A stretch of DNA of 58,624 bases, filler included, from Basidiobolus ranarum (GCA_040143965.1; 7 parts of 7 records of this genome joined end to end with filler, not necessarily neighbours in it), one strand, 5' to 3'; shown: positions 16,824 to 54,518, counted from the whole stretch's first letter. Notes: a model not told the origin generated them from the letters alone. A program made the numbers and translations.

Positions 16824-17806
16824 ATATATTTATTATAGAATACAAAGGATCTTTCCCTAGGTGAACAAGATCCTGAGTCTGCTATTATCTCCACAAGATT
16901 GGCAGAAGATAGTTCATATAGGAGCCTTCCAAGTTTATCATCAACTGTTGATGCCCTACAGGATGTAAAATTGAGCATCGATGATATTCAAAAAATGGTA
17001 GTACTTTTTCAAGTTTATGAAAAGTTTGTTCTTTGTAAAATTGTTAGACTTGATAAATCCGAATTACTTGTTCTTGTGGACCAGCATGCAGCTGATGAGC
17101 GTGTAAAGCTAGAGAATCTCTTTCAAATTTTCTTTATTAGGATTGGTGGAAACAACCTCATTGTTGATGTAGAGTCGCTACCATTTCCTATAGAGGTTCT
17201 TCTTACTCGTAAAGAGTTCGATAGTCTGCAGGAAGTTCAAGGCCATTTTCAACGTTGGGGAATAAGATGGAAATCAGTTACGAAAGAACTTGATGGAATA
17301 GGATCTCATGTTGCTGATATGTGCTCTATACATTTAACTCATTTGCCGAGGAGTATTGCCAGTCGATGTATACATGATTTTGACACAACTCGAGAGCTGG
17401 TTAAGCGACATATTTACTGGTTAGAAGAAAACCGATGGGCAATTCATCTCCAACCATTTTCATGCCACAGAACATGGGAGCAAAATTTGACCGGCTGCCC
17501 TCATGGTTTTATTGAAGTTTTAAATTCCAGAGCGTGTCGAAGTTTGTATAGCATTACCTAAATCTAAAGTTGAATCAAGTTTTGACATGATATCATAGGT
17601 GCTATTATGTTCAATGACATTCTTGATGAACAAAAGTGTCGACAGTTGATTGACTCATTAAGTAAATGTGCTAATCCTTTTCAATGCGCTCATGGAAGGT
17701 CAGTAGTATCCACTACAAATTGTGTAATAGAATAGCATCTTGACGCCAATACTTATGTTATAACAGACCTACTACTGCGCCAATAGCTATTATACAAAGG
17801 AAGTAA
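16824..17806 (+). CDS. MLH3: MutL homolog Mlh3, C-terminal endonuclease region (5' end cut by contig start)
   Basis: [12 protein letters not shown] metal-binding motif. Splicing introns 17542-17598 and 17699-17766 gives SRACRSAIMFND...PFQCAHGRP, the MLH3 signature. TAA at 17804-17806. Confidence 0.9.
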
Positions 17807-19689: not shown

Positions 19690-21506
19690 AAGGATTTACG
19701 CTAACAGTATGCACAATATAGCGGCTGTGTGTATGTACAAAGGAGATTTTATACTGGTAACCAAGAATCTGGAAAGGGCAAATGCAACAAAACAAAATAT
19801 ATAGAAGTTGTCTAGGAGATCGACACTACAGAATATATATCGATCAGCATTTCACAGTGTGTGCAGGTTCATTTACATGATAGGCAAACCAATCCCAACC
19901 CTTGATCACGTTGTCATCGTCATGTGCAACGATAAATCGAAGGAAACAAAATTTTAACGTGAAGAACATTAGGAGTAAGAAGTAAAGGAAGCTATAAATC
20001 GAATGAGTAGACGCATCCAATCTGCGAAAAGTCTGTTCTATTCTAATGGAGGACTATTACAAATCTTATGTTTCAGGAATGCCTGGCACGTTAGCAGACT
20101 GCATAATTATGGGTGTCAATCGCACCTATGATTTTCCCCAAATGTATCTGTAAAGAGTCCATAATTTTGGAATGATTTACGACAATCACGTGAAGTGGTT
20201 TACTTAGCCTCTGAGTTTATATTCCTAACGTTGTGCAGAACGTGCAAGTATCTTACAACTCGGTATGTGTACATCTGGCTTTGCACGAGGATTACAGCGG
20301 GTCGGGATTAGCGGTCACGACACAAGTTCAGCACGTGCTTCACACAATTGGTCAAATTCGCACGGGGTAATACCAAATAGCTTATATACATCGTTACAAA
20401 GTTTGGCATATCAATTATTGTGCTAATTATAACAGCAATTAGCTCGCTTAAGTATTTGACACCTACTACTATAACAACTGCTTTGATTCAAAGTAAGCTT
20501 GTTCTTTGTTAGTTCTCAGGTAATATATTGAGCTTATGGAATTTCGGACTCATATTAATACGGAATGATGCTGCTACTGGGTATGGCACATTAGGAATTT
20601 CTTCCAACATTGTCATTTTCAGGGTCCATACAAGCTTTGTAGAAGCAAGGGGGCTGAAACTAAGAATGAGAAATATGAATATGCTCTAGTCCCTTGACTA
20701 GCACAAATCTCACATAGAGACAGGGGATCCTTTGAGTTTTGAAATGATCAAGAATAACATATTGATGTTAAACAAATGAAGTACCTAAGAACTCAAGAGA
20801 GCATTCATGTTGCAAATTTGAAACTATCGAGCCCCTAATTTACGAAAGAGTTTTGTCTTATGGCTCAGATCAGTACAGATACTATTATCACACTATATCT
20901 TGCTTAAACCTGTCCTAATGTGGTTGATATCAAAGAAAGTTATAACATAGTGGTGTCAGCTGTATTTGGGTATCCAAGTGATCTGTAATTTTAGCGTCAT
21001 AGTTGATCAGATTTATAAGCGAGATGACTCTAAATTCAGGTATTATATAAACTATCGGCCTAATACATGCAGCGGACGATCTTTCTATCCCGAATAATGC
21101 AGGAGAAAGTTCAAAACTAATGGATTGCTTTCACGAACTGGAACTTGAATCTGAGCAACCTAATCACCTAAGCTTGCGACTTCTGATGGCGTTGAAGCAA
21201 GGTAATACAGTTAGAACTCACAATGTGCTCCAAGTTAGCATTGCAATTTGAATCAATTCAAGAAGCATCAAATCTAGTAGAACTCGCTAGATGAGCCCTC
21301 AGAGTGAGTAACTTGTCTAACAAACTGATTCGGTCAAGAGAGCAGCAATGCAGATATTGTGATCGTCTCCTAGAAATGGCGATATGGGTGAAGACCAATC
21401 TCAGTATAGCTCAAGATTCAGGTGATTTCAGGGCATTATTTATTTCAAAGATGCAAAGTTTCTAAACATTGGCATTGTTTATGTACAGTGTGGGATTGTG
21501 AAAACT

Positions 21507-25018: not shown

Positions 25019-25227
25019 CTTTAGTTGGAATAACAGCGGGTGATGGATTTGGAATAACAGCAGGTGGGGGGGGGGGTTAGATTAACAGTGGGTCTACCAT
25101 AAGATCCGTTGGAGCTTACATTTATATNNNNNNNNNNNNNNNNNNNNNNNNNNNNNNNNNNNNNNNNNNNNTTAATTAATTAANNNNNNNNNNNNNNNNN
25201 NNNNNNNNNNNNNNNNNNNNNNNNNNN

Positions 25228-32512: not shown

Positions 32513-32918
32513 CCCCCTAACAGAAATTTGTGGATTGTTATCATAGGAAAACTGTCACAATTTTAATCCATTTTGGATAAACCATTTACTTACCATCATA
32601 AAACTGTCAAGTTAGATTGGATTTTAATCAATTTTTTCAGTTTCAGGAATGAAATATCAAGCTCTTGCAAAATAGTTGCACATGATGGGCTACAATTTAC
32701 AAGAACTATGGATCAACATGTGTGCAAAAAATGTAACTCAAATTTCACACACTTATCACTTGAATACTAATTTGTCATCTTCAAAATTCTTAGTTGCTTT
32801 AATATATTCTCCTGCATATTTTTTTAGGGTTATTCATACCCAAGTCTTAGCTCATATTCAACACAAGTTTGTCTCAATACCTCCATCAAAACCCACCATT
32901 GTATTAATGTGCTAAATC
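32513..32918. mobile_element. End of an unclassified repeat, probable DNA transposon (other copies 41990-42097 and ~54519-55015)
   Basis: Terminus TA|CCC(CC)TAACAGAAATTT shared with the reverse-oriented copy ending at 42097; internal homology to the reverse complement of ~54715-55010. Confidence 0.65.
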
Positions 32919-33515
32919 TGTTGAAATTAGCATTGCCTAAACACCTATATAGTCATATATAGCATAGTACCTAGTTATCTTATAATTCACTAAGATATTA
33001 TCAATAATTCTCAATTGGAATTTACTTAAAATATTTTCACCAACTTAGAAGTTCTCAGATATATAGATTTTTTCAAACTTGTGCTAGAAGCCCCAAACTT
33101 GGCACACATGTTCCTGGGACCTTCCTTAACATATTCTACATGTTAGTTTGTTTACATCTTGACAAAACTATAAATGTCTACTTCTCAAATTTATGGAACT
33201 TTTCCTTCTTCTGAAAAATTGGATGGAACCAATTATCAAGTTTGGAAAATTAAAATGAAAATGCTGCTGCAAGAAAAATGACTTTGAGACACTGTTGTAG
33301 GAGAAGAAAACAATGCATAGCTATCTGAAACCAAAGTTTTACTCCAGGTTAAAAAAGAACAAAGTGCCTTTAACACAATTTGTCTTAACGTTAAAGACAA
33401 ATTGCTAATTCAATGTTCAAGAGCTAAAACTGCCAAGAAGGTATGGAAAGCCTTGGAAGACACCCACCAAACAAGTTCTGCTGCCAACAAGATGTTTCTA
33501 AGAAGACAATTCTTT
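32919..33515 (+). mobile_element. Copia family B 5' LTR (partial) and gag start
   Basis: TGTTGAAATT start; homology to LTR 54181-54518; gag EKLDGTNYQVWKIKMKMLL. Confidence 0.85.
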
Positions 33516-33615
33516 NNNNNNNNNNNNNNNNNNNNNNNNNNNNNNNNNNNNNNNNNNNNTTAATTAATTAANNNNNNNNNNNNNNNNNNNNNNNNNNNNN
33601 NNNNNNNNNNNNNNN

Positions 33616-39000: not shown

Positions 39001-40881
39001 TCAATAAATGGTCATAAGTGTACCTTTTCACACCAAATGAGACATTTTTCATGGGCCCACATAGATCAGAATGAATCAGGGCAAAGCTCTGAGTGGATTT
39101 GATCTCTTCAGAGCTTTAAGATGGCTATCAGTGATGTTTCTCATACATGCAATCTTCACACAGATCCAACTTAGTAATATTTTCAATTTCTAAGCCTGAA
39201 ACAAGCTGATTTTTGATCATTTGGGTCAGTTTTTGTAACCTAATTTTGCCTAAACTTCTATGCCATGTTTGACAGCTTATTTCTCCTGTTTGGGCTTAGG
39301 CATTGAATGCAATTTGTTGATTTCCAGCTTGTATAAAATTTGAGTTTAGCTCCCAGTAGCTAACTTAGTATTATATGAATCTGTGATAGTGCATCCAGCA
39401 TTGCTGAGCACAAAATTTTGTCCTTGAGTTGTTGCTTAGCTTACTAAGAGTAGATTCTTGGTTACATTTGGTACATTGAGTACATCCTCCAATTTTGCAG
39501 ATGGTGTAGCCATATTTTGATCTAAATTTGGCACAAATGTGCCCTTACCAACTGCATCTTGTGCATAGTCATCACCTAAGCAGACTTTCCATATTTGCAT
39601 AGGTTGTAAGTAGGAACACCAATCTTGCTTGTTTGACATAGGTTGGTATGTACCTGATTCAATGTACCATGTTTCTAAGTCCTCTTTAGTGGTTACTGAT
39701 AGGGCAGACACAAATAGATGATTCCTATCAGTTCTTACTTGTTCAGCTTGTTCCAATTTGAGCTTTATGGCAAAAATCCTTTTTCTGCAATCTTTGATTA
39801 TATCACCTGGTTTCACGTAATATCTGCAGATGATTGATTTCCTATTAGGGGCACCATTATCGGAGCCTTTTGGAGATTTTACAGCTCCAAAAAAAGCCTA
39901 TTCTGCACTATTTTACTGAGAATTAGGTTCTCTTTAATCCCTCATTCAAAAGCCTAGCACCAACATATTCCCTTGTTAGTAGCTCTGATTGATGTTAGGG
40001 TAAATATGAGATTCATAAATCTTTCTGGCAGGCTCCCAAGTGGTTTCAAGACTAAGTCACTTTCATTTAGAAGTACTCCAATGGATGAGAGCTCATTTGC
40101 CATAGTTTTTATCCAATTTATATGAATAAGCATGGGATTATGAGAATTTACCTGAATTGAGAAATTCATTTGCCTAAAATATAGCCTATTAGACAGACTT
40201 TTAGTCTTGCATAGTCCCTCAAGTGTTTCCCAGGCATATTGGACATTTTTGACTGATTGTAAGTGTCTCAATTGAGAGTCTCTGAGATGTAGACAAAGTG
40301 TACAAAGAGCTTTTCTCTGCTTCCTGTGAAAGGCAAGGATAGCTTCTGGTGGTCCCTTTGACTCCATTTTTTCTCCTGTACCAAATCCCAAAAGTTCATT
40401 GTGTTTTGACACCATTTGCATCTTGAACTTCCAAAGATGGAAGTCTACACCATAAACTTCTTTGTAGGTGCTAAAACAGTGGAAACAGTACAGGAAGACC
40501 TTCCTTTAACAGCTAGCTTGGGGCTCAACATGATCAAAGTGTTTAGGAAACTTAGTAGTGTTTTGGACAAGATTTGGATTTGTGATTTAGACTCTTGAGT
40601 TTAATTAGATAGATTATGTCCTACTTATAGTATACTATTAAATAGGACTATTGGATGTGCTTAGATCATGACAAGCATGCTTGTTAAGCATGGGTGATGA
40701 TTTGAGATGATTAGGAGAAGTTTTGTGAAAATAGTGAAAATTGTTATAAGTGATCTGATTGATATTTCCATCAATTAGAGCAATAAAGACGCATTTTGAT
40801 TGGCAGAGTTGAGGGCAAAATAATCAATATATCAGTAAACTAACTACTAAATAATGAGATGCTATTTACCTAATTTCAACA
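36058..40881 (-). mobile_element. Full-length degenerate copia family A element (~4.8 kb), LTRs 36058-36407 and 40531-40881
   Basis: Two diverged LTRs, PPT, eroded PBS; gag (39954-40421), PR, IN, RT (LYVADL) and RH in copia order on the minus strand. Confidence 0.92.
36790..36971. mobile_element. 182-bp Tourist/PIF-Harbinger-like MITE
   Basis: TIRs GGACTTGTTC / GAACAAGTCC; 3-bp TSD TTA/TCA; interrupts the RNase H sequence seen uninterrupted near 41841 (TGCTTCTTACTATTCC). Confidence 0.8.
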
Positions 40882-41118
40882 ACTTAATGAAACTTTTGCT
40901 CCAATAGCTATGTTTAGCTTGATTAGATAAATCCATGAAATTTCAGCCATCCACAACCATGATTCACATCAACAAGATGTAAAAACAGCCTTTTGGAATG
41001 GAAATCTAGCAGAAGAGGTCAATATTGAGCAACCAGATGGATTTGTTGACCCAAAGCTTCATGATAAGGTGTGTAAGCTGCTAGGTTTGCTATATACACT
41101 TAAGCAAGCACCCAAGGC

Positions 41119-41889
41119 TGATAAAAGTGTTTAGGGGATTTGGAAGTGCTTTGGACAAGATTTGGATTTGTGAATTAGACACTTAAGTTTTATTGAATAT
41201 GTCCTATTTGTAGTTTACCAAAAAATAGGACTATTGGACGTGTTTAGATCTTAACAAACATGCCTGTTAAGCATGGGTGAAAATTTGAGGTGATTTGGAG
41301 AAGTTTTGAGAAAATAGTGAAAATTGGTAAAAGTGATCTAATTGATATTTCTATCAACTAGAGCAATAAACACACGTTTTTGAATGACAGAATTGAGTAC
41401 TAAATAATCAGAATATGAATAAACTAACTACTAAACAATGCGTAGCTATTTACCTAATTTCAACATTCCCACTCAACTAATTATTTTGTGTTTCTCTTAA
41501 AACTAACTTATATCTTAATAATTCAAATTGTGCTTTAGCTAAAGGTTTGGTTAAGATATCAGCTATCATTTGTTCAGTAGGACAATAGACAAGTTCAATA
41601 ATATCATCCTCTATTGCTTCTCTAACAAAATGATACCTAATATCTATATGTTTTGTTCTAGCATGAAATGTAGGGTTTTTAGCTAATGAAATACAACTTT
41701 GATTATCTTCAAATACAGTAATAGTACGTGTTTGCATGTATTCTAAGTCTGTAAATAACTTCCTTAACCACATAGCTCCTTGTGTAGTAGCAGAGGCAGC
41801 CATATACTCTGCTTCTGTAGTGGAAAGTGCTACGGTTGGTTGCTTCTTACTATTCCAAGTTATGGCTCCATTACCATAGAGAAAAGTGT
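41119..41889 (-). mobile_element. 3' end of young copia family A element: RNase H ORF and 3' LTR (41119-41465)
   Basis: Open ORF 41477-41803 (EDNQSC, TKHIDIRYHF, ADILTK); highly similar to 33616-34221; several CpGs retained. Confidence 0.93.
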
Positions 41890-42107
41890 NNNNNNNNNNN
41901 NNNNNNNNNNNNNNNNNNNNNNNNNNNNNNNNNTTAATTAATTAANNNNNNNNNNNNNNNNNNNNNNNNNNNNNNNNNNNNNNNNNNNNATCAAATCTAA
42001 CTTGACAATTTTATGATGGTAAGTAAACGGTCAACCCCAAATGGATTAAAATTGTGACGGTTTTCCTACGATAACAATCCTCAAATTTCTGTTAGGGTAT
42101 TCTCATA

Positions 42108-42341
42108 AGGAATTTACTTAGAAGTTCTCAAATATATAGATTTTTTTCAAATGTGTGCTAGAAGCCCCAAACTTTGCACACATGTTCCTGAGACCTTCCT
42201 TAACACGTTCTACATATTAGTTTGTATACATCTTGACAAAACTATAAATGTCAACTGAATACTCAATAAATCAAAAAGTGAAAACCACCAATTTCTCTAA
42301 TTTTCCACACCACTTCCAACAGGCTCCCAAATACTTTAACA
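42108..42341 (+). repeat. Partial copia family B LTR
   Basis: GAAGCCCCAAACTTTGCAC...AGGCTCCCAAATACTTTAACA matches other family B LTRs. Confidence 0.8.
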
Positions 42342-42887
42342 ATATGAGCCTTTTTTTGGAAAAAAATTTGGATTGAAATCAGGTCAAATAAAGAAAATGA
42401 TGGACCAGAAACCATCAAAATCACTATAGTAGGAATAGGAATAGATATGATGGCATGACTTTATAATTAATCCAATGGAATTTACTGATGATAATTTGGA
42501 TAACTTTATGGTTTAAGAGGTTCATGCAAAGGCTCATATGGCTGTAGAGTTAATCAACCACGGTTTATATTTTTTAGTAAAGATAATAGTAGTAAATTGA
42601 AAAATTGATGCAATAAACAAACTCATACTTGAGCAAAATTTTTCACTAGAGCCTTTATTGGTGTGTCAATAATATTCTATATCCTTAGATAAACATGCTA
42701 CTCTACCTGTCCATTGATGGATGTTTTGATCGGCTATGAAATACTGCACGACTGTGGTTTTAGATAATCATGCTATAGGCGGTTAAACTACTTGGGTTAT
42801 TATTTACCATAATTAACTTAATTATGCGAAATTGAAATACACTTGAAATCACGAATTTAGGATTGAAAATTGAGTATGTTGCAACAA

Positions 42888-44388
42888 CTAAAGAGGAAAG
42901 CTTGGTCCCACATCTTTGACGGTCAACGGGTTACGTCTGATACGAGTGCTTGATAACTCGTCGGCACCAATATCAGGCTTTCCATCATCACGAAGCTGGC
43001 CTTGAATATCGTCGCTAACTTCAAAGATGTTTGTCACCGCGGTACTATTAACGGATGGGCTAGTGGAAGTCAACAAGTAGTTACTGTTCAATTTAAAATC
43101 AGCTACGGCAACAAACCCATCAGCAGGAACATCTTTGGCACTTTTCAGAATCAAATTTCCAGAATAAGTAGTCTTAAGTTGCTTGGTCATTTTGAGAATG
43201 ATGTTAGCACCTCCAACAACGTTGTTTGCAATGGTATTCTCAGATGGAAATAAGGAAGAATCGGTTGGGTTTTTATCCCAAGACATTTCAATTGGGGCAA
43301 AAAAGGTGTTGTGGACCGACTGAGATTTGATGGCAGGTCTGTGTGTTGCATCACGTCTACCACTCAGCTAAAAATTGAGAAGGGTTAGTCTAGATAATCT
43401 GTAACGGAACTCAAGTACCACTTACCATGAGTGCGTTTCCAGCGATGTTGTAAACTAAATTGTTATAAATACTATGCCCATTTCCATGTAAGCGGATTCC
43501 AGTGGAACCCTTTTTGTTGTTACCATCAATGATATTACCATAAACCTTGGAGTTATCAGTGTTTCTCAAGACAATTCCTCCAGCACTGTTGCGGATGGTA
43601 TTGTAACGGACTGTAGCCTTACTAGACTTGACAGAAATGATTTCTGGATCACCATCACATGATTCAAAAAGGTTATACTGAACATTGGCTCCAGATATCG
43701 GACCGTCAGGGAAATCCGCATGAGTGTTTCCGAGTGCGATCGCTTCGCCACCATTTGGAGAAGTGGCGACAAGGTCATGGAAGTAAGAGCGATCAACTTG
43801 CAAGTTCGTAGCAATCGGAATGATCTTGGAGCTTGGATCGCATGTTACCAGGATTGGCGAACCTTGAGCCTTTTTTGGTCCGAATTCACAACGATCAATA
43901 CGGACAGAGTCGGAAGTAGATTTGACGACAACCCAATCGTAGTTTCCTCCATCAGCAGGATCTTCTATCTTAAAAGTAGATCTTGTGATACGACAGCTTT
44001 GGCAATCAACAATATCTACCCGTTGAGATGGCCCATTGAAGGTAAAGCCGTCGAGTACTACGTATGCATTATCCCTGAAGCTGAATATTTTTGTGAGTAC
44101 AGCTTTACCAGTGTTCTTTGCACGGATAACAATTGGTGCGTCTTTAGTGCCTTTCACTTTTCGAACGCCCACAAAAGAACTATAATCCCCGTCGTTTAGG
44201 ATGAAGCATGAACCGGGAACAGCTTTCTCTAGCTTAGTATTGAGGTCATTTGCATCAGATATTTGAAGCGTTTGGACACATGGTGGAAGAGGGTCATCCA
44301 AAATATCACGTTTAGGGCGAACAGCGCTGACCGTGGTAAATAAGGATGCAAGTATGCCACCAGCAAGAAGATTAGATAGACAAACCAT
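42888..44388 (-). CDS. Secreted polysaccharide lyase family 6 (alginate lyase/chondroitinase B-like), copy 1, 480 aa
   Basis: Exons 44388-43426 and 43367-42888; intron GTAAGT..GACTAAC..TAG; signal peptide; NGGE, CDGDPEIISVKSS, GGIVLR and PDIGADE...PLTVKDVGP motifs. Confidence 0.9.
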
Positions 44389-44917
44389 AGTGAATATCTT
44401 TCATGACTAGTGATGACCTTTTATGTTCATTGCCTGCAGAGTTATTAAATGACATAATTGTACTCTTCCAAAAATCTGTTAGAATACATAAAGAGTCTTC
44501 ACCATTTAGGAACTCATACAAGTATTACTGCTCCACTACCTGACTATCGGTGACCGAATGGATTTATAAGCAAAAGCGGAAGATCTTCAACATCTTTTAA
44601 CCAAAACAAATATTTAGTCTCTCTGTAAGATTATTTGTGAGCCCACACACTTCCAACTGCTCCATCATGTATCTCCCAAGGTAGGACTTATCCAGATATA
44701 TTCCTGAACGAATAAATGAAAAATTTAATCGCGCCCGATTTTTCGAATGCATTACCTCACTTTGAATGCCAATTTAGATAACTTCGTTACTATCAATTAT
44801 TAGCAATGCATTTCATTAATTTCGTGTATCTTAAACAACATAAACCTGGTTGGTATTGACACGTTTTTCAGTGAATATTTATTAAATTGCATGATTTCCT
44901 ATATAAAATACTCTAAC

Positions 44918-46435
44918 TTAAAGAGGAAAGTTTGGTCCAACATCCTTGACAGTTAAAGGATTACGCTTAACTCGCGCTTCAGAAAGCTCATCAGCACCAA
45001 TATCTGGCTTACCATCATTACGAGGTTGGCCTTGAATATCATCGGTAGTCGAAAAGATGGTTTTCACTGCAGAAGTATTAACAGCTGGACTGCTGGAAGT
45101 CAACATATAGTCACTGTCCAATTTGAAATCAGCTACGGCAACAAATCCTTCAGTAGGAACATCTTTAGCACCTTTTAAGACCATATTTCCTGAGTAAGTA
45201 GTCTTTGATTGCTTGGTTAATTTGAGAATGATGTTGGAACCACCCATTATGTTGTTAGCAATGGTGTTCTCGGATGGGAAAAGTGAAGAATCAGTAGGGT
45301 TTTCATTCCAGGACATTTCAATGGGGCCGAAGAGTGTATTGTGGACCAACTCTGATTTGGTAGCAGCTCTGTGAGTATCACCACGTTTAGGACTCAACTA
45401 AATGATGGGAAATGGGCAATTAGTACAGGGCTAGGAGTGGTATAAATCGGGAATAAAATGAAAATGCTTTACCGCAAGTGCGCGACCATCAATATTGTAG
45501 ATCAGATTGTTGGAAACAGTATGACCGGTTCCGTGAATACGAACTCCAGCGGATCCTTTTTTGTTCTTACCATCAATGGTGTTACCATAGACCTTGGACT
45601 TATCGGTATTTCTCAAAACAATTCCTCCAGCACTGTTACGGATGGTATTGTAGCGGATTGAAGCCTTACTAGACTTGACAGAAATGATTTCTGGGTCCCC
45701 ATCACATGATTCAAAGAGATTGTATTGAACATAGGCGCGGGCTTCGGGGCCATTAGGGAAATCTGGATGAGTATTTCCTAGTGCAATAGCTTCACCACCA
45801 TTGTCGGACGCAGGAATAAGGTCATGGAAGTAAGAACGATCAATTTGCAAGTTAGTGGCAATAGGGTCTGTCTTAGAGGCTCCATTGGAAGGCATGATAA
45901 TTGGGGAACCCTGGCCTCTCTTGGGTCCGAATTCACAATGATCAATACGAACAGAGTCCGAGGTAGATTTGATGACAAGCCAATCGTGATTTTTTCCATC
46001 GGTGGGATCTCTAATCTTGAATGTTGATCTTGTGATACGGCAACTCTGGCAACCTTCAACTTCAACACGTTGACCTGAACCACTGAAGGTGAAGCCATCT
46101 AATACTACATATGCGTTGTCTCTGAATTTAAGATCTTTGTTGAGAACAGCCTTACCGGTTTTCTTAGCACGGATCACAATTGGCGCTTTCTGAGTACCCT
46201 TAGCATTACGAATGTCACCAAGAGCACTGTAGTCGCCATCGTTTAGGATGAAGCATGAACCTGGTTTAGCTTTTCCCAGTTTAGCGACAAGGTCTTTGAC
46301 ATCTGCAATTGGTAGTGTCTGGACGCATGATGGAAGTGGATCGTTCAAGATATCACTTTCTGGGATGGCGGCATTGGCAGTGATGAAGACTGTCGCAAGG
46401 ACAGTGCTTGCAAAAAGAGTACAGAGATGAACCAT
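44918..46435 (-). CDS. Secreted PL6 lyase, copy 2, 480 aa
   Basis: Exons 46435-45473 and 45397-44918; intron 45398-45472 at the same codon position as copy 1; same motifs. Confidence 0.9.
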
Positions 46436-47147
46436 AGTGAAGATGATTTACAAGAAGGGGTGTGTATGCCTATTTATGTGAGTTAATAACTGGCTGTCTG
46501 CGGTAGGGCATGCCTGTACAATATCAGAATAAAGAATTTAACCCAAACAAACCAATGAAAAAGCAAATTGATTTGTTAGTGTCCAGGAACTTGTACAGGT
46601 ACTACTATAGTAAACTTCCATACACCGAGATCATATCAAGTAAAGTTCACTGTTTCTTTTCAAAGCGACCGTGACTAAGTAGATATGTATTTCGGGCTTA
46701 TATTCTGCATCAGTGAGTTAAAATAAATGTATTATAATTGATTTGATAACTGGTGTGTAACATAACTACGTAGAACCCTTAGCAGAATACAAAAGAAAGT
46801 AAAGAGTTGACGATCCTTGGCGATCTTAGAGTAAATATCTATCCGAGACTTGTGAGTTCCATTGCTACAATGTGAAAAGTTGAACTACTCTACATATGAG
46901 GCTCAATCTTTGTTTCCAAATTGTAAAGGTTACTGTGATTTGCTATATAGAAGGATCAGCCATGTTAATGGAAAACTTCAACTGAGCTTACACGTTACCT
47001 GCAACGTTCGTTACACACCATAATCGTTATCATTTATGTCAATGCTAATTGGGGGAAAATCAAGACAAATTTCCGAAATAGGTTGACCATTTCAAGGGCT
47101 GGGAAATCTCTATCATTATTGCATGCTATTTAGGTAAGTACTAGATT

Positions 47148-47226
47148 TAGTTAACAGCATATCAATTTGTATAGTTAACAGCATATCAATTTATATAGTT
47201 AACAGCATATCAATTTGTATAGTTAA
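47148..47226. repeat. 24-bp tandem repeat x3.3
   Basis: TAGTTAACAGCATATCAATTT(G/A)TA repeated without spacers. Confidence 0.9.
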
Positions 47227-47590
47227 TCATAGGGACAAGATATAATATAGCATAACGCATCAGCATAGGATTAACAAAAAGTGATTAATGAATACAAGAA
47301 TAAGGAATGCTATCAATTTAATAGAATTCTGCTCACCAGACCTATTACATAATAAGTGTGATTACAACCCAAGATTTTTGCTCTGTTAATAAATACTGAT
47401 ATGCAAGTGTTTGTGATGAGTACAATCCACAATTACTAGCCTAAAAATGATCCTAAAGATACTTTGGCTATTTTCTGTTCAACAAATAAATTACGCAAAT
47501 AGTAAGTATAATTCTAGCCCAAAACTTTTAGTCTGCATAAAGCGTCAGTATATACTACTGTACATATACTACTGTAGGTAATGATGTAGC

Positions 47591-48363
47591 CTAAAGAGGA
47601 AAGCCTGGCTCAACATCCTTAGTAGTTAGTGGATTACGCTTGATAGGGGCATTGGAGAATTCATCAGCACCAATATCTGGCTTTCCATCATTACGGGGTT
47701 GACCTTGGATATCATCATTAGTCGAAAATATAGTTTTCACAGCAGTGCTATTAACGGCTGGACTATCAGAAGTCAACAAGTAGTCACTGTTCAATTTGAA
47801 ATCAGCTACGGCAACAAACCCTTCAGTAGGAACATCTTTAGCACCCTTTAAGACCATATTTCCAGAGTAAGCAGTCTTTGATTGCTTGGTCAATTTAAGA
47901 ATGATATTAGAACCACCGAATAAGTTGTTAGCAACGGTGTTCTCGAATGGGAAAAGAGAAGGGTCAGTTGGGTTCTCGTTCCAGGACATCTCAACTGAGC
48001 CGAAGAGTGTGTTGTGAACCAACTCTGATTTGCTGGCAACTCTGTGTCCATTACCACGTTTAGGACTCAACTAAATGATAAAAAATGAGAGATTGGTCCA
48101 AAGTTAAGAACGAAATTGTTCAAAATAAAATCAAAATATATGTACCGAAATTGCACGACCAGCAATATTGTAAATCAAATTAATTGGAAATAATGTGGCC
48201 AGTACCATGTAAGCGGACCCCGCTTGAACCCTTTTTATTTTTACCATCGATGGTGTTGCAATAGACTTTAGAGTTATCAGTATTTCTCAAAATAATTCCT
48301 CCAGCACTGTTACGGATAGTATTGTAGCGGATTGTAGCCTTACTAGACGTGATAGAAATGATT
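47591..48363 (-). pseudogene. PL6 copy 3 pseudogene (5'-truncated, frameshifted)
   Basis: Open exon 2 (47591-48070); intron 48071-48145; exon 1 remnant with +1 insertion (TCC AAT T AAT) and Lys->Thr in IISITSS; breaks off at a (TA)n tract near 48364. Confidence 0.85.
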
Positions 48364-48827
48364 TATATATATATATATTTATGTAAAATATCGGCCATGT
48401 GTTTGTATGTTAAACTTGATCCTTCTAATTATGTACCTACCTGAATGATAAGTTAGGACCAAATTCCCAGGTACATTCATTGGTATCCAGTCAACCAGAA
48501 AACTGTTACCTAAAGTTCATTATTACTTCCAAAGCAGTTAAAACCAATAAGTTCATAGTTGGTGTTGATAAAACAGAAGAGCGTTTAGATATGTAAAATA
48601 TTCGGTCATAGCGTAAATTTAAGCAGGAGACACTGTTGTTCGTCACTACCATGTGAAAATTACTGCTTTACACACATCTCTCATAGAATTTAGAGTAACT
48701 TTTTCTTCTACGAATCCAAGAGCTTTATTGGAACACCTAGACCATCATGACGAATTTTAAATGGAAAGATCGGCCATGTGGATGGGAAAATCCCATGGAC
48801 CCCGCACGTTGGTTACACAATACTCGT

Positions 48828-49420
48828 ACTTCCCGAGTAAGTAGTTTTTGATTGCTTGATCAACTCGAGAATGATATTAGCACCACTGATTAAGTTGTTA
48901 GCTATGGTATTATGTGATAAGAATAGAGGAGTCAGTGAAGTTTCATTCCAGGACAATTCAACTGAACCGAATGAGTGTCTTGTAAACCAATTCTGATTTG
49001 GTAGCAGATTTGTGTGTATCACCACGCGTAGGTCGCAACTAAATGATACAAAATGAACAATTAAGATTCATCCAATCTTAATGTTCTCCATTGGTGGGAT
49101 CTCTAATCTTGAATGACGATCTTGTGACACGTAACTCTGACAATCAACAATTTCGATGGCCCATTGAAAGTAAGGCCGTCAAGTGATACGTACGTGTTAT
49201 TTCTAAAGCAGAGAATCAACAATTTCGATGGCCCATTGAAAGTAAGGCCGTCAAGTGTTATTTCTGAAGTTTAGTATTTGGGTGACTGCCCTTAGCATTA
49301 CGGGTATCACCGATAACACCACAGTCGCCATCATTTAGATTGAGCTTTGCCAAGTTTAGCGATAAGGTCTTGGGCATAAGCCATTATCCGTGTTTGGATA
49401 CAATGTGAGATTGAGTCGTT
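48828..49420 (-). pseudogene. PL6 copy 4, heavily deleted pseudogene
   Basis: Exon 2 remnant (FGSVELSWNE...IANNLISGANIILELIKQSKTTYSG); exon 1 scraps; internal ~44-bp duplication at ~49142 and ~49214. Confidence 0.8.
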
Positions 49421-49792
49421 TCAGATAGCGCAATGAAATAGTGCAGCATTGCCATTTTGTATTAAGTAATGCCACAAATAAATAGAGCATGTTAGACACT
49501 GGCACTTTGCATTAGTTATGAGGAACAAGCAAGTATATTCATTCAATGAGGAGGGATTGTCAAGCATTGTGTCGGAAATTGCTCAAATATTTATCCAAGC
49601 TACTAGGAATTTTAGCTACTTACCTAATTTATCATCAGAAGTTTTTAATACGTGACCCAAAACAATTCGATTTAAAACAATTAATGAATGCTAAAATCAA
49701 TCGTGCTATTGGTTTATTAGTATTCGAATGAATTACGTTCAACAGTATTACTTGGATAATAAATATCATTCTATTACAGGTAATGATGTAGC

Positions 49793-50258
49793 TTAAAGAG
49801 GAAGTCCTGGTCCAACATCCTTAGTAGTTAATGGATTGCGCTTGATGGGAGCATTAGACAGCTCATCAGCACCAATATCTGGCTTTCCATCATTACGGGG
49901 TTGACCTTGAATATCATCGTTAGTCGAAAATATAGTTTTCACAGCAGTGCTATTAACGGCTGGACTATCAGAAGTCAACAAATAGTCACTGTTCAATTTG
50001 AAATCAGCTACGGCAACAAACCCTTCAGTAGGAACATCTTTAGCACCCTTTAAGACCATATTTCCAGAGTAAGTAGTCTTTGATTGCTTGGTCAATTTAA
50101 GAATGATATTAGAACCACCGAATAAGTTATTAGCAACGGTGTTCTCGAATGGGAAAAGAGAAGGGTCAGTTGGGTTCTCGTTCCAGGACATCTCAATGGG
50201 GCCGAAGAGTGTATTGTGGACCAACTCTGATTTGCTAGCAGCTCTGTGGGAATCACCA
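49793..50258 (-). CDS. PL6 copy 5, exon 2 only (rest cut by contig end)
   Basis: Open frame nearly identical to copy 3 exon 2, with shared 3' flank AGGTAATGATGTAGC. Confidence 0.8.
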
Positions 50259-50358
50259 NNNNNNNNNNNNNNNNNNNNNNNNNNNNNNNNNNNNNNNNNN
50301 NNTTAATTAATTAANNNNNNNNNNNNNNNNNNNNNNNNNNNNNNNNNNNNNNNNNNNN

Positions 50359-51830
50359 AGTATTCTGGACACATTTCCAGTCAGAATTAACAGGCCCAAA
50401 AGCAATCAAAAGCTATTCTATTCTGGCAAGTACAAAGCCCACTGTGTAAAGTTCCTATCATGATTCTGATCTCGGCATACTGATCCACTGCATATGGAAC
50501 TCTTCTATTATGCGGGCCCGCGTGTTTGAACAATGGCAACAATACTTTGATGGAGCAAATCACAAAACTACAGTATATTGTGATCATAAGAACCTTCAGT
50601 ACTTTAGTAAAACCAAAGTTCTCAACCAATGTCAAGCAAGATAATCATTATTTCTTGCCAGTGTTGATTTTGTGATTATATATCAACCAGGTCGCCATCA
50701 AGGAAAACCTGATGCCTTATCACGTAGAGCAGAATTTCATCCTAAAGATGGGGATGAGGCCTTTGGCCAACACAATATTTCCTTACTGAAGCCCCCCAAC
50801 TTCAAATTAGTGCAACTGCCCTTTCTCTGCCTAGTTCAAGCATATTCCATGAAGACCTATTGTTAATATCAATCAAGAAGGCCCAGGAAGTATTCAAAGG
50901 CCTCTCAAGCTTGATCTTGTACCACTCTTTCTCTATCATCAATGATCTCATGTTTTATAAAAAGTGCCTTTACATTCCAGACCACACTTCCAGACTCAAA
51001 ATCATGCAGGAAAGATTTGACTTGCCACTTGCAGGACACTTTGGTATTGCCAAATCATATATGTTGGCATCCAGGGATTATTGATGGTCCAAAATGTTTG
51101 CATTTGTCAAGACTTATGTTTCCATCTGTGATACTTATGCTGAAGTAAAGACTCCAAAACATCAGCCCTATGGGCTCCTACAGCCACTTCTAATTCCTAA
51201 TAAGTGGTGGAAATCCATATTCCTAGATTTCATAACAGATCTACCCTTGTCTACCGAGTATGATTCAGTTCTGGTAATTGTTGAGCATCTAACAAAGATC
51301 ACCCACTTTGTGCCCTTCAGCAAGTCAATTGATGCAAAACAAAGAGCAGAATTGGTAACTCTAAACATCTTCCACCTACATAGACTCCCTGAAACTATCA
51401 TCTCTGACCAAGGACCTTTATTTGCGTCCAAATACTGGAAAAGTCTTCTCCAAACCTTGGGTAACTCTACCAATCTCTTGACTGCCTTCCATCCCCAATC
51501 TAATGGCCAAACTGAAAGACTCAATCATGTTTTGGAACAATATTTGTGAAACACTATCCACTATAATCAGGATAATAGGATGCAACTCTTGCCTCTTGCT
51601 GAATTTGCCTACAACAACCCTTATCATACCTCAACAATACAAACTTCTTTCTTTGCAAAGTATAGATTCCATCCTGGTTTCACAATTTACCCACCATCCA
51701 ATTTACCTTCCCCTGCTGCCTGAGACCATGCCACTTTCCTTAAGGACATCCATAAGCAATTTATATCCAAGTTGGAGCATGCTCAATCCCAATACATAAG
51801 CTTTGCTGATAAGAAAAGTTGTTGTTTCCA
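50359..51830 (+). mobile_element. Ty3/gypsy (Tf1/Tf2-like) RNase H-integrase fragment
   Basis: CDHKNLQYF, YQPG...KPDALSR, GHFG, YGLLQPL, DFITDLP, IISDQG, AFHPQSNGQTER. Confidence 0.9.
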
Positions 51831-51859
51831 GTTCTTGTCCAGTTCCTTATTGTGACACA

Positions 51860-54518
51860 TACTGATATTGATGGATAATATACTTCAACACTAGTTAAGC
51901 ATTTTTGCAAAATTCATGGGATTAAGCAAGAAACTACTGCCCCCTATTCAACTCAACATAATGGAGTTGCTCAAAGAGCTAACAGGACTATAATAGAAAG
52001 GGCAAGATCTGTGATAATTGCACAAATATCTCATAGCTTTTGGATGAAATTTGTTGCTACTGTTATATATCTGAAGAATAGAACTTTTACTAGAAGTTGT
52101 CTAACTTTACACCATATCAAGCTTAGTTTGGAGTCAAACATGTGTGAAACATTTGAGGATCTTTGGATGCATTGCTTATGTCAAACTTATGACCAAAAAT
52201 TAGTGTAAACTTCATCCAAAAAATAAGAAATGCATAATTCTGGGTTATTGTACTCAAACTAAAGCCTACAGCCTCTATGATACCAAAATTTCCACGTTAA
52301 TGAAGTCCAGGGGTGTTTTTTCAATGAAAATGAAACATGTTCAACCAAAATGATCTCCAAAGATGACTAAAATCAATGTTCCCCTGACCCAATCATTCAA
52401 ATTGATTTACAACAAAATATTGAAGAAAATGGCATTCCTGTGGACTCTTCAACCTAAATTTTTTATACTGAGGTGTCCTATAAACTTCCAGAAGTTGTAG
52501 CACCTTTATGCCTAACCAGGAGATAAAATTGGATTAGAAATAGCCCTAAAAACTATATCAATGAGTCATGAAATTGGCCCTATGCCTTCACAGCTCAAAT
52601 ACAAGAATCACAAACTGTAAAAGAGGCCCTGAATGGCCCTCACACAAAACTTTGGAGATCTGCAATGGCTGATGAGTACCAGGCTTTGATTGATAATCAA
52701 GTTTGGATTTTAGCCAAGTTACCAGATGATAGAAAATCAATTGCCTACCAATGGGTGTGTAGAGTTAAATTCAAATCTGATGGCAATATAGAAAGATACA
52801 AGGCTAAAGTAGTAGCCAAAGGCTATTCCCAAATGCAAGGAATTTGATTGTACAGAAACTGTTGCTCTTATAGCAGAGTTGAATTTAATTTGATTGAGTT
52901 TAGCAACTTTAGCTAAATATCAGTTAGTTATATATCATATGGATGTTAAAAATACTTTTTTGAATAGTGAGCTTGCTGAGTAGATCTATATAGACCTACC
53001 AGATGAATTTGTTGACCCAGAAAATCTAAATAAGTTTGGAGACTCCAGAAAACACTCCATGATGTAAAACAATCTGTAAGAGCTTGCAATAGCAAGATAG
53101 ATGCTTTTTTTGAAACAATCAAATTCCTAAAGAGTAATGCTGATCATAGTATCTACTTCAGGCCAGATAAGACAAGCCCAGTTTTATTAGCCTTATATGT
53201 TGATGACCTTGTTATAGCAACCATTGACTTGAAGACTTTGGAGAAAACCAAATCCAGCTTAGCTGCCAAATTCAATATGACTAATCTTGGTAAACTGATG
53301 TACTGACTTTGAATTCAAATTCAGATATATAGGACTACCAAAACAATGACTTAAAGCTACTCTAAGTATATCCTAGATATACTAAAGATGTTTAAAATAG
53401 AAAAATGTAATCCAGTATCTACCCCAATGGAGACAAATCTTAACTTGACCAAAAATGCCTCAAATCAGAAATTTTTGAATTTAAATGCAAGATAGAAATA
53501 TTCTTAGCCATTGATGGTTGATTGTTTGATGTATATTAGGGCTGGAGCATGGCCAGATATTGCATATTCTGTGAGAGTTATGTGCCTATATCTTCAAAAT
53601 TAAGGATCTGGTCAAATCATAGCAGTTAAGAAAATTTCAGATATTAGAAAGGTACTGTGAATCCATGCTGGAAATACATATATTCCGGATCCAATTTTGA
53701 TCTGATGGGGTACTCAGATGCAAATTGGGGAAGAGATGTTGAAGAGAGGTGATTTACAACAGGTTACTTATCTTGTGGTTGTAATGGAGCTATTTAGTTG
53801 AATTCAAAGAAACAACCTACCAGAGCACTTTCAACTACAGAAGCAGAAAATATGGCTGCCTGTGATACAACAAAAGAAACAATATGGTTGAGGAAACTTT
53901 TAACATATTTAGGCTATTCTCAAAATTCACCAACTACAATATTTCAAGATAATCAAAGTTGTATCAAATTAGCTAAAAATCCAACATTTCATAATAGAAG
54001 CAAGCATATTAAGCAACACTTCATTATAGAGATCATAGAGCATAGGTTTATTGACTTAATTCATTGCTCTACAGAAGATATGTTTGCTGATATATTAACC
54101 ATACCATTAGCCAGACAGAAATTTGAGAAATTTAGATCTTTATTGGGATTAGCTTATATGACTATTTAGTTGAAGGAGAGTGTTGAGGTTACTGTTGCCT
54201 AAGAATCTATATAGTCATTTATAGCTTAGTACTTATTTATCTTATTTTTCATTAAGCTACTTTCCATTATTCTAAATTAGAATTTAGTCAGAATATTTTT
54301 ACCTAATTAGAAGTTCTTGGATATATAGAGTTTTTAAAGAAGCCCCAAACTTTGCTCACATGTTCCGGGGACCAAACTTAACACATTCTATATATCAGTT
54401 TGTTTACTTCTTGATAAAACTAAATATGTCAACTTTCTACTGAATAAATCAATAAGTCAAAACCACCAATTTGTCTAATTTGCCAAATCACTTCCATCAG
54501 GCTCCCAAACACTTAACA
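51860..54518 (+). mobile_element. Copia family B IN-RT-RH, PPT and 3' LTR (54181-54518)
   Basis: Collinear with 9400-10850; LYVDDL, STTEAE, QDNQSC; TTGAAGGAGAG then TGTTG...TTAACA. Confidence 0.92.

Follow-up and report, generated by a model that had tools for sequence, protein, structure and literature searches.

Five PL6/chondroitinase-B homologues lie on the minus strand between positions 42888 and 50258 of a 58,624-nucleotide stretch of DNA from Basidiobolus ranarum, a fungus of gut and soil. This stretch, hereafter the window, consists of seven contigs (8314 to 8266 bp) joined through artificial N44-TTAATTAATTAA-N44 spacers, and the array occupies the whole of one of them, an 8269-bp contig (41990..50258) containing only PL6 copies and non-coding DNA (Table 1). 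A tblastn search with the spliced copy-2 protein as query finds no homologue elsewhere in the window and bears out the initial annotation, which had described five same-strand copies on a single contig. Two of the five, copies 1 and 2, are intact (tblastn spans 44388..42891 and 46435..44921, both complete); copy 3 lacks its 5' part and is frameshifted, copy 4 is degenerate, and copy 5 ends at the contig edge. Spacers of 0.5-1.1 kb separate the copies. Eukaryote-type genes and genes of LTR retroelements occur on contigs of the window. The repeat downstream of copy 1 recurs at 10949-11174, 33043-33182 and 54304-54518, linking the array contig to three other contigs of the window, and a second repeat piece, 41990-42097, has an inverted recurrence at 32515-32622.

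Table 1. Positions of the PL6 copies, a dispersed repeat and the contig boundaries in the window
Feature	Position	Strand	Description
Artificial spacer N44-TTAATTAATTAA-N44	41890..41989	.	contig boundary
Dispersed repeat	42116..42343	.	228 bp, downstream of copy 1; recurs at 81-92% identity
Copy 1 exon 2	42888..43367	-	159 codons + stop; C-terminal beta-helix turns and tail
Copy 1 intron	43368..43425	-	58 nt, GT..AG, phase 0, in-frame TGA, CTAAC branch-point-like motif
Copy 1 exon 1	43426..44388	-	321 codons; signal-peptide-like N-terminus, most of PL6 beta-helix, Lys254 and Arg275; PF14592 E 1.7e-30
Copy 2 exon 2	44918..45397	-	159 codons + stop
Copy 2 intron	45398..45472	-	75 nt, GT..AG, phase 0, in-frame TAG
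Copy 2 exon 1	45473..46435	-	321 codons; PF14592 E 7.7e-33; PDB 6qps E 3.9e-31
Copy 3 pseudogene	47591..48364 (tblastn 48341..47594)	-	residues ~257-480 only
Copy 3 exon 2	48070..47591	-	frame open
Copy 3 intron	48145..48071	-	75 nt, GT..AG, position as in copies 1 and 2
Copy 3 exon-1 remnant	48364..48146	-	1-nt insertion leading to TAA
Copy 4 degenerate remnant	48827..49453 (tblastn 49453..48831)	-	patches of residues ~20-156 and 322-391, several frames
Copy 5	49793..50258 (tblastn 50257..49796)	-	exon 2 only, residues 327-480 + stop, open frame, contig end
Artificial spacer	50259..50358	.	contig boundary

Spliced as predicted, copies 1 and 2 each encode the 480-aa protein described initially, with one terminal stop, and because both divide into 321 + 159 codons, their introns are in phase 0 after the identical codon. 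The spliced products equal the Basidiobolus ranarum gene models K7432_011988 / P0004 (copy 1) and K7432_011989 / P0272 (copy 2) of NCBI in every residue, an agreement which means no more than that the intron was placed identically by an annotation pipeline. The reported sharing of a phase-0 intron by copies 1-3 at one codon is likewise borne out, each of them having GT..AG there. In copy 4 the final ~25 nt of the intron survive, joined to an upstream exon-1 fragment, a remnant absent from the initial annotation. The presence of the intron in copies 1-3 and of its remnant in copy 4 makes it older than the duplication of copies 1-4. Bacterial PL6 homologues align without interruption over the exon junction of copies 1 and 2, and PL6 proteins of Streptomyces and from metagenomes align with the exon-2 tail of copy 1. 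The dN/dS ratio between copies 1 and 2 is 0.16 (dS 1.05), indicating past purifying selection on both.

Each of the five full-length Basidiobolus proteins starts with 22-23 uncharged hydrophobic residues, small ones closing the stretch, and residues 1-29 are unstructured in the AlphaFold (AF2) model. Six Cys and one N-glycosylation sequon are conserved among the Basidiobolus proteins. The signal-peptide-like N-terminus suggests that the two intact products are most likely secreted.

The other three copies are broken or incomplete, and the array is therefore partly decaying. The patches of copy 4 have 28-65% identity to the copy-2 protein (tblastn), and this copy bears an internal deletion as well as a 50-bp internal duplication (49139-49188 / 49211-49260). 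Residues 327-480 of copy 5 are 88% identical to the copy-2 protein (tblastn). Copy 5 matches copy 3 with 94.7% nucleotide identity over a 471-bp BLAST alignment that includes about 15 bp of 3' flank, and with 93.9% over 462 aligned exon-2 bases. Since position 50258 is the contig end, copy 5 is possibly complete in the real genome. The array is currently turning over, copies 3 and 4 being pseudogenes and copy 5 being truncated by the assembly.

Membership of these genes in the PL6 family, as first annotated, is confirmed by Pfam, PDB sequence search, the AF2 model and Foldseek, and their homology to bacterial PL6 proteins extends end to end, taking in the C-terminal tail quoted initially. PF14592 matches spliced copies 1 and 2 with 106.8 and 114.5 bits (cut-off 24); exon 2 of a copy taken alone has no Pfam family match. 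All 15 matches of the PDB sequence search are PL6 lyases, with 6qps the best (E 3.9e-31), and each PDB match listed by Foldseek for the model (pLDDT 82.6, pTM 0.87) is a PL6 structure down to rank 26. Lys254 and Arg275 align with Lys-249 and Arg-270 of BcelPL6, to which catalytic roles are ascribed (PMC6879350). In a sample of 102 sequences, Lys254, Arg275 and Glu249 are each present in all 102, Glu215 in 100 and Asn212 in 92, and an acidic residue (Asp or Glu) occupies position 247 in 101. From their family membership, the products would be Ca2+-dependent beta-elimination polyuronate lyases, with Lys254 as the base and Arg275 as the acid.

The residue after the catalytic Arg is Asn, not His, in all five Basidiobolus proteins. 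[quoted passage not shown] Because Asn replaces this His, the activity of the Basidiobolus enzymes is possibly low or different, and they are unlikely to be poly-M-specific alginate lyases of the BcelPL6 type.

Our first guess is that the products may have alginate MG/G-type activity, for example on bacterial exopolysaccharide in gut or soil, and our second that they may act on dermatan sulfate in the manner of chondroitinase B. The latter would make them lyases of animal glycosaminoglycans in host gut or tissue, not alginate lyases. Dermatan-sulfate lyases exist within PL6 (1dbg and 7o78 are among the PDB matches), Basidiobolus is described as a herptile gut dweller and possible opportunistic animal pathogen (PMC9391592), and the residual activity of the chondroitinase B mutant makes Asn appear tolerable at the His site of such an enzyme. 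We nevertheless regard this as unlikely: chondroitinase B is the weakest of the 15 PDB sequence matches (E 2.4e-09, with alginate lyases reaching 3.9e-31), its structures are the lowest-ranked PL6 entries in Foldseek (ranks 14, 25 and 26), and alginate lyases make up most of the characterised PL6 enzymes, the one characterised Streptomyces enzyme being endo-poly-MG (PMC4954714).

The bacterial alginate lyases BcelPL6 (6QPS), Pedsa0632 (7O84/7O7A) and Pedsa3628 (7O79) consist, like the Basidiobolus proteins, of one right-handed parallel beta-helix domain of ~430-480 residues, and share with them PF14592, the catalytic Lys and Arg and the surrounding acidic/Asn residues. They give the best PDB sequence matches (E 3.9e-31 to 9.4e-25) and the top Foldseek matches, but when aligned by structure in Foldseek they are only 23-26% identical to Basidiobolus. 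The Basidiobolus genes differ from those of single-domain bacterial PL6 alginate lyases by the intron, the putative eukaryote-type signal peptide and the fungal host, and from BcelPL6 also by the Asn in place of its essential His. The chondroitinases B of Pedobacter heparinus (1DBG/1OFL) and Pedsa3807 (7O78) share family and fold with Basidiobolus and stand farthest from it among the solved PL6 matches.

When 5.8 billion protein clusters were searched by word index, Basidiobolus proteins filled the best six of the 120 rows listed (72-90% identity); the remaining rows have 32-44% identity, and all organism-named ones among them are Streptomyces, Embleya or Kitasatospora. Most of the nearest rows are metagenome proteins, presumably bacterial. 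An exhaustive HMMER scan across 1.84 billion representatives gives the Basidiobolus cluster 617 bits, after which the score drops to 195 bits. The best 80 loci from 185,579 prokaryote genomes are 32-38% identical, and a metagenome scan yielded a single relative, 28% identical. The description of PL6 as a bacterial family agrees with CAZy of June 2016, in which PL6 is reported as all-bacterial (PMC4954714), and with the ESM Atlas, where the PL6 (PF14592) clusters among those returned are 100% Bacteria. Absence from other fungi refers to the best rows of the protein databases, one metagenome scan and the literature.

With PL6 otherwise bacterial and the contig both short and devoid of genes other than PL6, the array might represent bacterial contamination of the fungal assembly. 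The argument first drawn against contamination from a neighbouring host-type LTR finds no footing in the adjoining retroelement ORFs (41477-41941 and 50400 onward), which sit on other contigs past the artificial spacers and are no neighbours of the array. Contamination is still extremely improbable. The GT..AG introns, with their in-frame stops, break a frame that is continuous in bacteria, and the contig combines intergenic spacers and decayed pseudogene copies with dispersed repeats common to three other contigs. Its GC content of 0.382 falls within that of the other six contigs (0.35-0.39), with 0.43 in the CDS and 0.37-0.38 at GC3, against 0.65-0.72 in actinobacterial and Myxococcota relatives; Calditrichota and Neomarinimicrobiota relatives have 0.43-0.44. 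Among the matches listed, bacterial proteins do not exceed 44% identity, and the Basidiobolus clade includes an 84%-similar orthologue from B. meristosporus, located on a 146-kb contig of an independently assembled genome.

In a tree of 99 rows, of which five are Basidiobolus and the others prokaryote-type, the Basidiobolus rows group together as a single clade (SH-aLRT 100) with a stem of 1.39. The long stem, together with the identity of at most 44% to any bacterium among the matches listed, marks the PL6 acquisition as old. Both features would also suit a eukaryotic or fungal gene of great age that descended vertically and disappeared from almost all other lineages, or a transfer between eukaryotes, in place of a bacterial source. 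We consider such an origin very unlikely: no named eukaryote other than Basidiobolus occurs among the 120 homologues listed, the 1.84 billion representatives contain a single 50%-identity cluster close to the query, and both CAZy in 2016 and the returned Atlas clusters are wholly bacterial for this family. The PL6 gene has a single intron, set against medians reported for Basidiobolus of 2 in genes of fungal origin and 0 in transfer candidates (PMC7466969).

The best tree favours a donor in a Myxococcota-containing group. Basidiobolus falls inside a group of 43 rows (SH-aLRT 90) in which five Myxococcota / delta-proteobacterial MAG loci are the only rows with a name, and the forks nearest to its stem have support of only 84-90. 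An actinobacterial, Streptomyces-like donor appears doubtful, even though the actinobacterial resemblance noted in the initial annotation is real. The PL6 proteins of Streptomyces, Embleya, Kribbella and Amycolatopsis match those of Basidiobolus in length (475-480 aa) and architecture and align with them end to end, tail included, at 34-38% identity (34% for the Streptomyces type); Streptomyces-type proteins predominate among the named matches listed; and a tree constrained to join Basidiobolus to 16 actinobacterial rows is worse by 24.3 lnL units and is not rejected (p-AU 0.31). In the best tree, however, Actinobacteria are not the closest group and occupy the opposite half. The N-terminal motif D-P-L-P-x-C-x-x-T is common to Basidiobolus and the 43-row group and missing from the Streptomyces proteins, the top-scoring matches outside Basidiobolus are metagenome proteins and not those of Streptomyces, and the dominance of Streptomyces among named matches may mirror the number of Streptomyces genomes sequenced. 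The actinobacterial proteins also differ in their TAT-type signal (a weak PF10518 match), in being encoded by intronless genes with GC of 0.67-0.72, and in retaining the His after the catalytic Arg. Sven0074 of S. venezuelae, the characterised example among them, is reported to be a PL6_2 endo-poly-MG lyase (PMC4954714).

We therefore favour, with a probability of roughly 0.8, transfer of a PL6 gene from a bacterium to a fungus and its subsequent amplification in the array, the intact products being predicted lyases. A bacterial single-domain gene of ~480 aa would have entered a common ancestor of B. ranarum and B. meristosporus, where its composition would have drifted to that of the host, its bacterial export signal would have been swapped for a eukaryote-type signal peptide, and one phase-0 spliceosomal intron would have been gained prior to repeated duplication. 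The common origin and the amplification after intron gain, both proposed initially, agree with the single clade and with the intron of copies 1-3 and its remnant in copy 4. Copies 1 and 2 diverged long ago (dS about 1), probably before B. ranarum and B. meristosporus separated.

Transfers of this kind have precedents. Tabima et al. 2020 identify 2-5% of Basidiobolus genes as transfer candidates (PMC7466969), and transferred CAZyme genes are described in gut fungi, Neocallimastigomycota (PMC11291939); these cases share with ours a fungus living among gut bacteria, host-like composition and few introns. The main text of PMC7466969 deals with secondary-metabolite genes, and the terms lyase, chondroitin and carbohydrate are absent from that part; the PL6 gene may already sit in its supplementary candidate table. 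The alginate lyase of Nitzschia (PMC11960938) is likewise a polyuronate lyase transferred into a eukaryote with ensuing gene duplication, but its lyase family, host and habitat differ, PL6 appearing in that source only in the reference list. The PL6 array of Basidiobolus would represent an old bacterium-to-fungus transfer followed by amplification, in a genus in which many such acquisitions are already known (PMC7466969).

The window is made up of seven separate small contigs glued together and does not represent one genomic stretch. Runs of 44 Ns occur in six pairs, spaced about 8.4 kb from one another, with TTAATTAATTAA between the two runs of every pair, and the resulting N44-TTAATTAATTAA-N44 spacers, with stops in all frames, occupy positions 8315-8414, 16724-16823, 25128-25227, 33516-33615, 41890-41989 and 50259-50358. 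The pieces follow each other in descending size (8314, 8309, 8304, 8288, 8274, 8269 and 8266 bp). As the pieces are separate contigs, inference from neighbours across the spacers is invalid. The sixth piece (41990-50258, 8269 bp) holds the array of polysaccharide lyase family 6 (PL6) homologues, which takes up most of that contig.

The copies of the array were located by a list of stop-to-stop ORFs, by the minus-strand sequence and by tblastn of the spliced copy-2 protein against the whole window, where the matches to this protein are confined to the array. The ORF list and tblastn agree on the five tandem same-strand copies on one contig described in the initial annotation, and the sequence agrees with its two complete 480-aa copies and with the phase-0 intron at the same codon in copies 1-3. 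The observation of the array is correct and far beyond chance. In the two intact genes, copies 1 and 2, exon 1 contains exactly 321 codons and exon 2 contains 159 codons and a stop, so that the introns are in phase 0 and follow the same codon. The predicted spliced products are 480 aa long with a sole, terminal stop. Both introns start with GT, end with AG, contain an in-frame stop and carry a CTAAC/CTAAT-type motif 5' of the acceptor.

The remaining copies are incomplete. Nothing of copy 3 is found upstream of residue ~257, and a 1-nt insertion creates a TAA in its exon-1 remnant. Copy 4 contains a 50-bp internal duplication, and its early exon-1 fragment is followed at once by the final ~25 nt of the intron and by part of exon 2; the retained 3' end of the intron shows that this copy, too, descends from an intron-bearing gene. 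Copy 5 ends at position 50258 and consists of exon 2 only, because the contig ends there. It is close to copy 3: a 471-bp BLAST alignment that takes in ~15 bp of 3' flank gives 94.7% DNA identity, and exon 2 by itself (462 aligned bases) gives 93.9%.

Features of the PL6 contig and of the other contigs in the window (copy extents and residue ranges are those of tblastn with the copy-2 protein)
Feature	Position	Strand	Description
PL6 copy 1	44388..42891	-	residues 1-480; intact; 71-74% identity to copy 2
Copy 1, exon 1	44388..43426	-	
Copy 1, intron	43425..43368	-	58 nt
Copy 1, exon 2	43367..42888	-	
PL6 copy 2	46435..44921	-	residues 1-480; intact
Copy 2, exon 1	46435..45473	-	
Copy 2, intron	45472..45398	-	75 nt
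Copy 2, exon 2	45397..44918	-	
PL6 copy 3	48341..47594	-	residues 257-480; frameshifted and 5'-truncated pseudogene
Copy 3, intron	48145..48071	-	75 nt, GT..AG; same position as in copies 1 and 2
PL6 copy 4	49453..48831	-	degenerate patches, residues ~20-156 and 322-391; 28-65% identity, several frames
PL6 copy 5	50257..49796	-	residues 327-480; 88% identity; cut by contig end
Dispersed repeat, ~228 bp	42116-42343; 10949-11174; 33043-33182; 54304-54518		on four of the seven contigs; 81-92% identity
108-bp piece	41990-42097		inverted at 32515-32622, on one of the contigs with the dispersed repeat
LTR retroelement piece	39954-40505	-	contig to one side of the PL6 contig
LTR retroelement piece	40931-41941		same side
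LTR retroelement piece	50645-52208	+	contig to the other side
DEAH-box RNA helicase gene, eukaryotic type	1723-4632	-	969-aa ORF; DEAD, Helicase_C, HA2 and OB_NTP_bind domains
Transferase-family ORF	11845-13260	+	intronless, 471 aa; PF02458, E 3e-53; ~670 bp downstream of a dispersed-repeat copy
MutL-type ORF	16839-17561	+	MutL C-terminal dimerisation domain, E 8.5e-08
ORF with F-box-associated LRR match	18160-19695	-	511 aa; weak match, below cut-off

GenBank already contains both intact genes, entered as hypothetical proteins of Basidiobolus ranarum. The spliced products of copies 1 and 2 are identical, letter for letter, to KAK9762350.1 (K7432_011988) and KAK9762351.1 (K7432_011989), respectively, and the contig given for either entry is 8269 bp long. 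The public annotation thus uses the same intron, which agrees with the predicted gene model while not amounting to experimental proof. Copies beyond the window were counted from the protein database. The B. ranarum proteome holds further PL6 models, K7432_013077-79 on a 6871-bp contig and K7432_016796 on a 2733-bp contig; their identity to copy 2 is 80-90%, which marks them as further paralogues and not alleles. The first three form a second tandem array and the last is an additional copy. Two paralogue models of 251 aa start at residue 1 of the 480-aa protein but reach no further than residues 251 and 245, and are probably truncated models or broken copies. In B. meristosporus CBS 931.73 the homologue is a 480-aa 'pectin lyase-like protein' (ORX95839.1) encoded on a 146-kb contig.

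The assignment of these proteins to PL6 is borne out by profile and structure comparisons. The Pfam family PF14592 (Chondroitinas_B) matched exon 1 of copy 1 with 106.8 bits, exon 1 of copy 2 with 114.5 bits and the full copy-1 protein with 105.6 bits, far above the cut-off of 24; exon 2 alone matched no Pfam family. Among NCBIfam models no PL6 model matched, the sole match being the generic beta-helix repeat TIGR03804 (21.6-25.1 bits). All 15 sequence matches in the PDB are PL6 lyases, from the best, 6qps (the bacterial poly-M-specific alginate lyase BcelPL6, E 3.9e-31), to the weakest, chondroitinase B (E 2.4e-09). An AlphaFold (AF2) model built from a 20-row alignment (pLDDT 82.6, pTM 0.87) has a beta-helix from residue ~38 and leaves residues 1-29 unstructured. 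Foldseek against the PDB listed exclusively PL6 structures down to rank 26 (E 2e-17 to 1e-11), and other beta-helix families start at rank 27. The ESM Atlas's own model reached a TM score of 0.84 to an actinobacterial PL6 cluster. The proteins are thus predicted to adopt the right-handed parallel beta-helix fold of the solved PL6 enzymes.

Among the matches listed, close relatives of these proteins were found in Basidiobolus only. A word-indexed search of 5.8 billion clusters returned 282 matches; the best 120 include six Basidiobolus sequences at 72-90% identity, while the rest show 32-44%, and every organism-named one among the latter belongs to Streptomyces, Embleya or Kitasatospora. HMMER, run exhaustively against 1.84 billion 50%-identity representatives, returned 2466 matches, the best 150 of which serve as evidence of distribution. 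The score drops from 617 bits for the Basidiobolus cluster to 195 bits (42% identity) for the next, and none of the ten best non-Basidiobolus representatives looked up, all of them metagenome proteins, carries an organism name. Among 185,579 prokaryote species, each represented by one genome, 439 relatives were found. The best 80, at 32-38% identity, come mostly from Streptomyces, Embleya, Kribbella and Amycolatopsis, together with one Calditrichota MAG, one Neomarinimicrobiota MAG and five loci of Myxococcota or delta-proteobacterial MAGs. The PF14592 clusters returned by the ESM Atlas were all 100% Bacteria, and all 177 PL6 entries in CAZy as of June 2016 are given as bacterial in the text consulted (Mathieu et al., PMC4954714). 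In a metagenome scan for Basidiobolus-like DNA, a single one of 126 pattern matches encoded a relative, at 28% identity. In the protein databases and prokaryote genomes searched, the matches listed (best 120 and 150) exceed 44% identity in Basidiobolus only; the other named ones are bacterial, and many are unnamed.

For phylogenetic analysis we sampled 102 sequences: the five full-length Basidiobolus proteins, 23 loci from the best 80 in the prokaryote genomes (16 actinobacterial ones and all seven others), the top 50 representatives, every sixth one among the following 99 and seven metagenome rows from the word-indexed search. Sequences were trimmed to the profile-matching region, and the omission of three short rows left 99 rows and 475 columns. 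An unrooted tree was computed in IQ-TREE under LG+C20+F+G4 PMSF with a quick search. All five Basidiobolus rows group together (SH-aLRT 100), and the stem leading to them measures 1.39 substitutions per site. Their clade falls in an unresolved group of 18 rows (84), itself part of a group of 43 rows (90) whose only named members are the five Myxococcota-type MAG loci. This single clade nested in bacterial-type diversity, in a quick and unrooted tree of 99 rows, favours the one transfer from bacteria proposed earlier. The direction from bacterium to fungus is well supported, and the data also support a single origin in Basidiobolus. On this view a bacterial-type PL6 gene would have been acquired once by the fungus, gained its intron and then been amplified. 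Copy 1 is the first to branch within the Basidiobolus clade (support 89), and the B. meristosporus protein is placed with the copy-2-like paralogues. The copy-1/copy-2 duplication is probably older than the split of B. ranarum and B. meristosporus, as consequently are the intron and the acquisition.

The resemblance to actinobacterial proteins pointed out in the initial annotation holds. Full-length alignments show 34% identity to a Streptomyces protein over 456 columns and 36% to the best metagenome protein over 488 columns; both run from residue ~32-48 to the last residues, including the C-terminal tail that had been quoted as a point of likeness, and are ungapped at the intron site. In the best tree, however, the opposite half holds the 16 actinobacterial rows, as a clade with support 100. 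Constraining them to group with Basidiobolus makes the tree 24.3 lnL units worse, and this grouping is not rejected (p-AU 0.31).

Bacterial contamination, the alternative to acquisition by the fungus, had been argued against from the intron and a neighbouring host-type LTR. To the extent that it relies on the flanking retroelement ORFs, a Copia-like one at 41477-41941 and the integrase ORFs from 50645, the LTR argument fails, because these sit on other contigs. The pieces on these contigs are a gag of Copia type (PF14223, E 8e-23), a pol C-terminus that looks Copia-like by eye and has no Pfam match, and integrase fragments of Gypsy type, whose matches to PF17921 and PF00665 both stay under the curated cut-offs. 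The PL6 contig itself carries no host gene. The composition of the array is host-like: the GC content of the PL6 coding sequences is 0.43 and GC3 is 0.37-0.38, and the contig has a GC content of 0.382 against 0.35-0.39 in the other six, while the actinobacterial and Myxococcota relatives range from 0.65 to 0.72. One copy of the dispersed repeat shared among contigs lies downstream of copy 1; alignment of the repeat copies established no LTR or TIR hallmarks. The predicted spliceosomal intron, the host-like GC and GC3, the shared dispersed repeats and the orthologue on the 146-kb B. meristosporus contig together argue that the array is physically integrated in the fungal genome and does not represent contamination. 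The eukaryote-type genes (DEAH-box helicase, MutL C-terminal domain) and LTR retroelement genes on the contigs of the window support their being fungal DNA.

The active site of the Basidiobolus proteins combines a conserved core with one divergent position. Lys254, Arg275 and Glu249, in the numbering of the 480-aa protein, each occur in 102 of the 102 sampled sequences, the first two thus in all five Basidiobolus proteins; Glu215 is found in 100, Asn212 in 92, and Asp or Glu at position 247 in 101. In line with what is described for chondroitinase B and AlyGC, Asn212, Glu215, position 247 and Glu249 would be putative ligands of the Ca2+ that neutralises the +1 carboxylate. The HMMER alignment with 6qps places Lys254 (E-I-I-S-V-K-S motif) on Lys-249, the catalytic base, and Arg275 (G-G-I-V-L-R motif) on Arg-270, the catalytic acid; both residues are reported to be required in BcelPL6 on the evidence of mutation (Stender et al., PMC6879350). 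By these alignments, the Basidiobolus proteins are PL6 members with an intact core catalytic pair. In all five full-length Basidiobolus proteins, Asn occupies the position right after the catalytic Arg; across the sample the residue there is His in 62 sequences, Ala in 14, Asn in 8, Gln in 5, Ser in 4 and others in 9. This His is described as 95% conserved in PL6, and its replacement in BcelPL6 (H271N) as inactivating, while AlyGC and AlyF, which are G-specific, can do without it and a chondroitinase B mutant of the same His retains 25% activity (PMC6879350, in the portions consulted). Being dispensable in the former and partly needed in the latter, the residue does not define the family, and its replacement by Asn in Basidiobolus argues against a BcelPL6-like poly-M specificity.

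The intact copies 1 and 2 differ by dS 1.05 and dN 0.167 (dN/dS 0.16, Nei-Gojobori), values which point to an old duplication and to purifying selection in both lineages. All five full-length Basidiobolus proteins start with 22-23 uncharged, hydrophobic residues ending in small residues, and six Cys and one N-x-S/T sequon are conserved in their mature portion. The products are thus probably secreted, and those of the intact copies would be putative Ca2+-dependent beta-elimination lyases of a polyuronate. Most characterised PL6 enzymes are listed as alginate lyases, and Sven0074 (PL6_2), the sole characterised Streptomyces member, as a strict endo-poly-MG lyase (PMC4954714, in the sections consulted). 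Because the change from His to Asn argues against poly-M and the known PL6 enzymes are mostly alginate lyases, we would first guess at an alginate lyase of the MG/G type, with bacterial exopolysaccharide in gut or soil as its substrate, a tentative choice that falls somewhat short of even odds. A dermatan-sulfate lyase is the second guess and an unlikely one, and the remainder of the probability goes to another polyuronate as the substrate or to a weakened enzyme.

Wholesale acquisition of bacterial genes in Basidiobolus is already established. According to the main text of Tabima et al. 2020 (PMC7466969), 2-5% of the gene models in Basidiobolus may stem from bacterial transfer; these candidates resemble fungal genes in composition and codon usage and are poorer in introns (median 0 vs 2). 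The PL6 locus fits this pattern exactly. The words 'lyase', 'chondroitin' and 'carbohydrate' are absent from that main text, and its supplementary Table S5 may list the B. meristosporus orthologue. Within the literature library searched, no publication on PL6 in Basidiobolus or Zoopagomycota was found. Judged from the sequence comparisons, the case joins a known pattern of bacterial genes domesticated in Basidiobolus and of bacterial CAZymes domesticated in gut fungi, and adds a predicted secreted carbohydrate-active enzyme to bacterial acquisitions so far discussed mainly for secondary metabolism.

With a fungal clade that shows purifying selection, a tandem array, an intron and a predicted signal peptide of eukaryotic type, PL6 would come to include eukaryotes, and the clade would offer a natural His-to-Asn active-site variant for questions of PL6 specificity. 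In its fullest form, to which we give a probability of roughly one in four, our reading is that the Basidiobolus clade would be the first eukaryotic branch of an otherwise bacterial family, that, having fixed Asn at the site of a 95%-conserved active-site His, it would have a specificity of its own, and that a gut-dwelling fungus may secrete its enzymes from an amplified array against a bacterial polyuronate matrix, such as an alginate-type biofilm exopolysaccharide, or against host dermatan sulfate. If true, a bacterial weapon would have been turned by a fungus on bacteria or on its host. The PL6 array itself provides a testable handle on how a gut fungus deals with bacterial biofilms or the host matrix.
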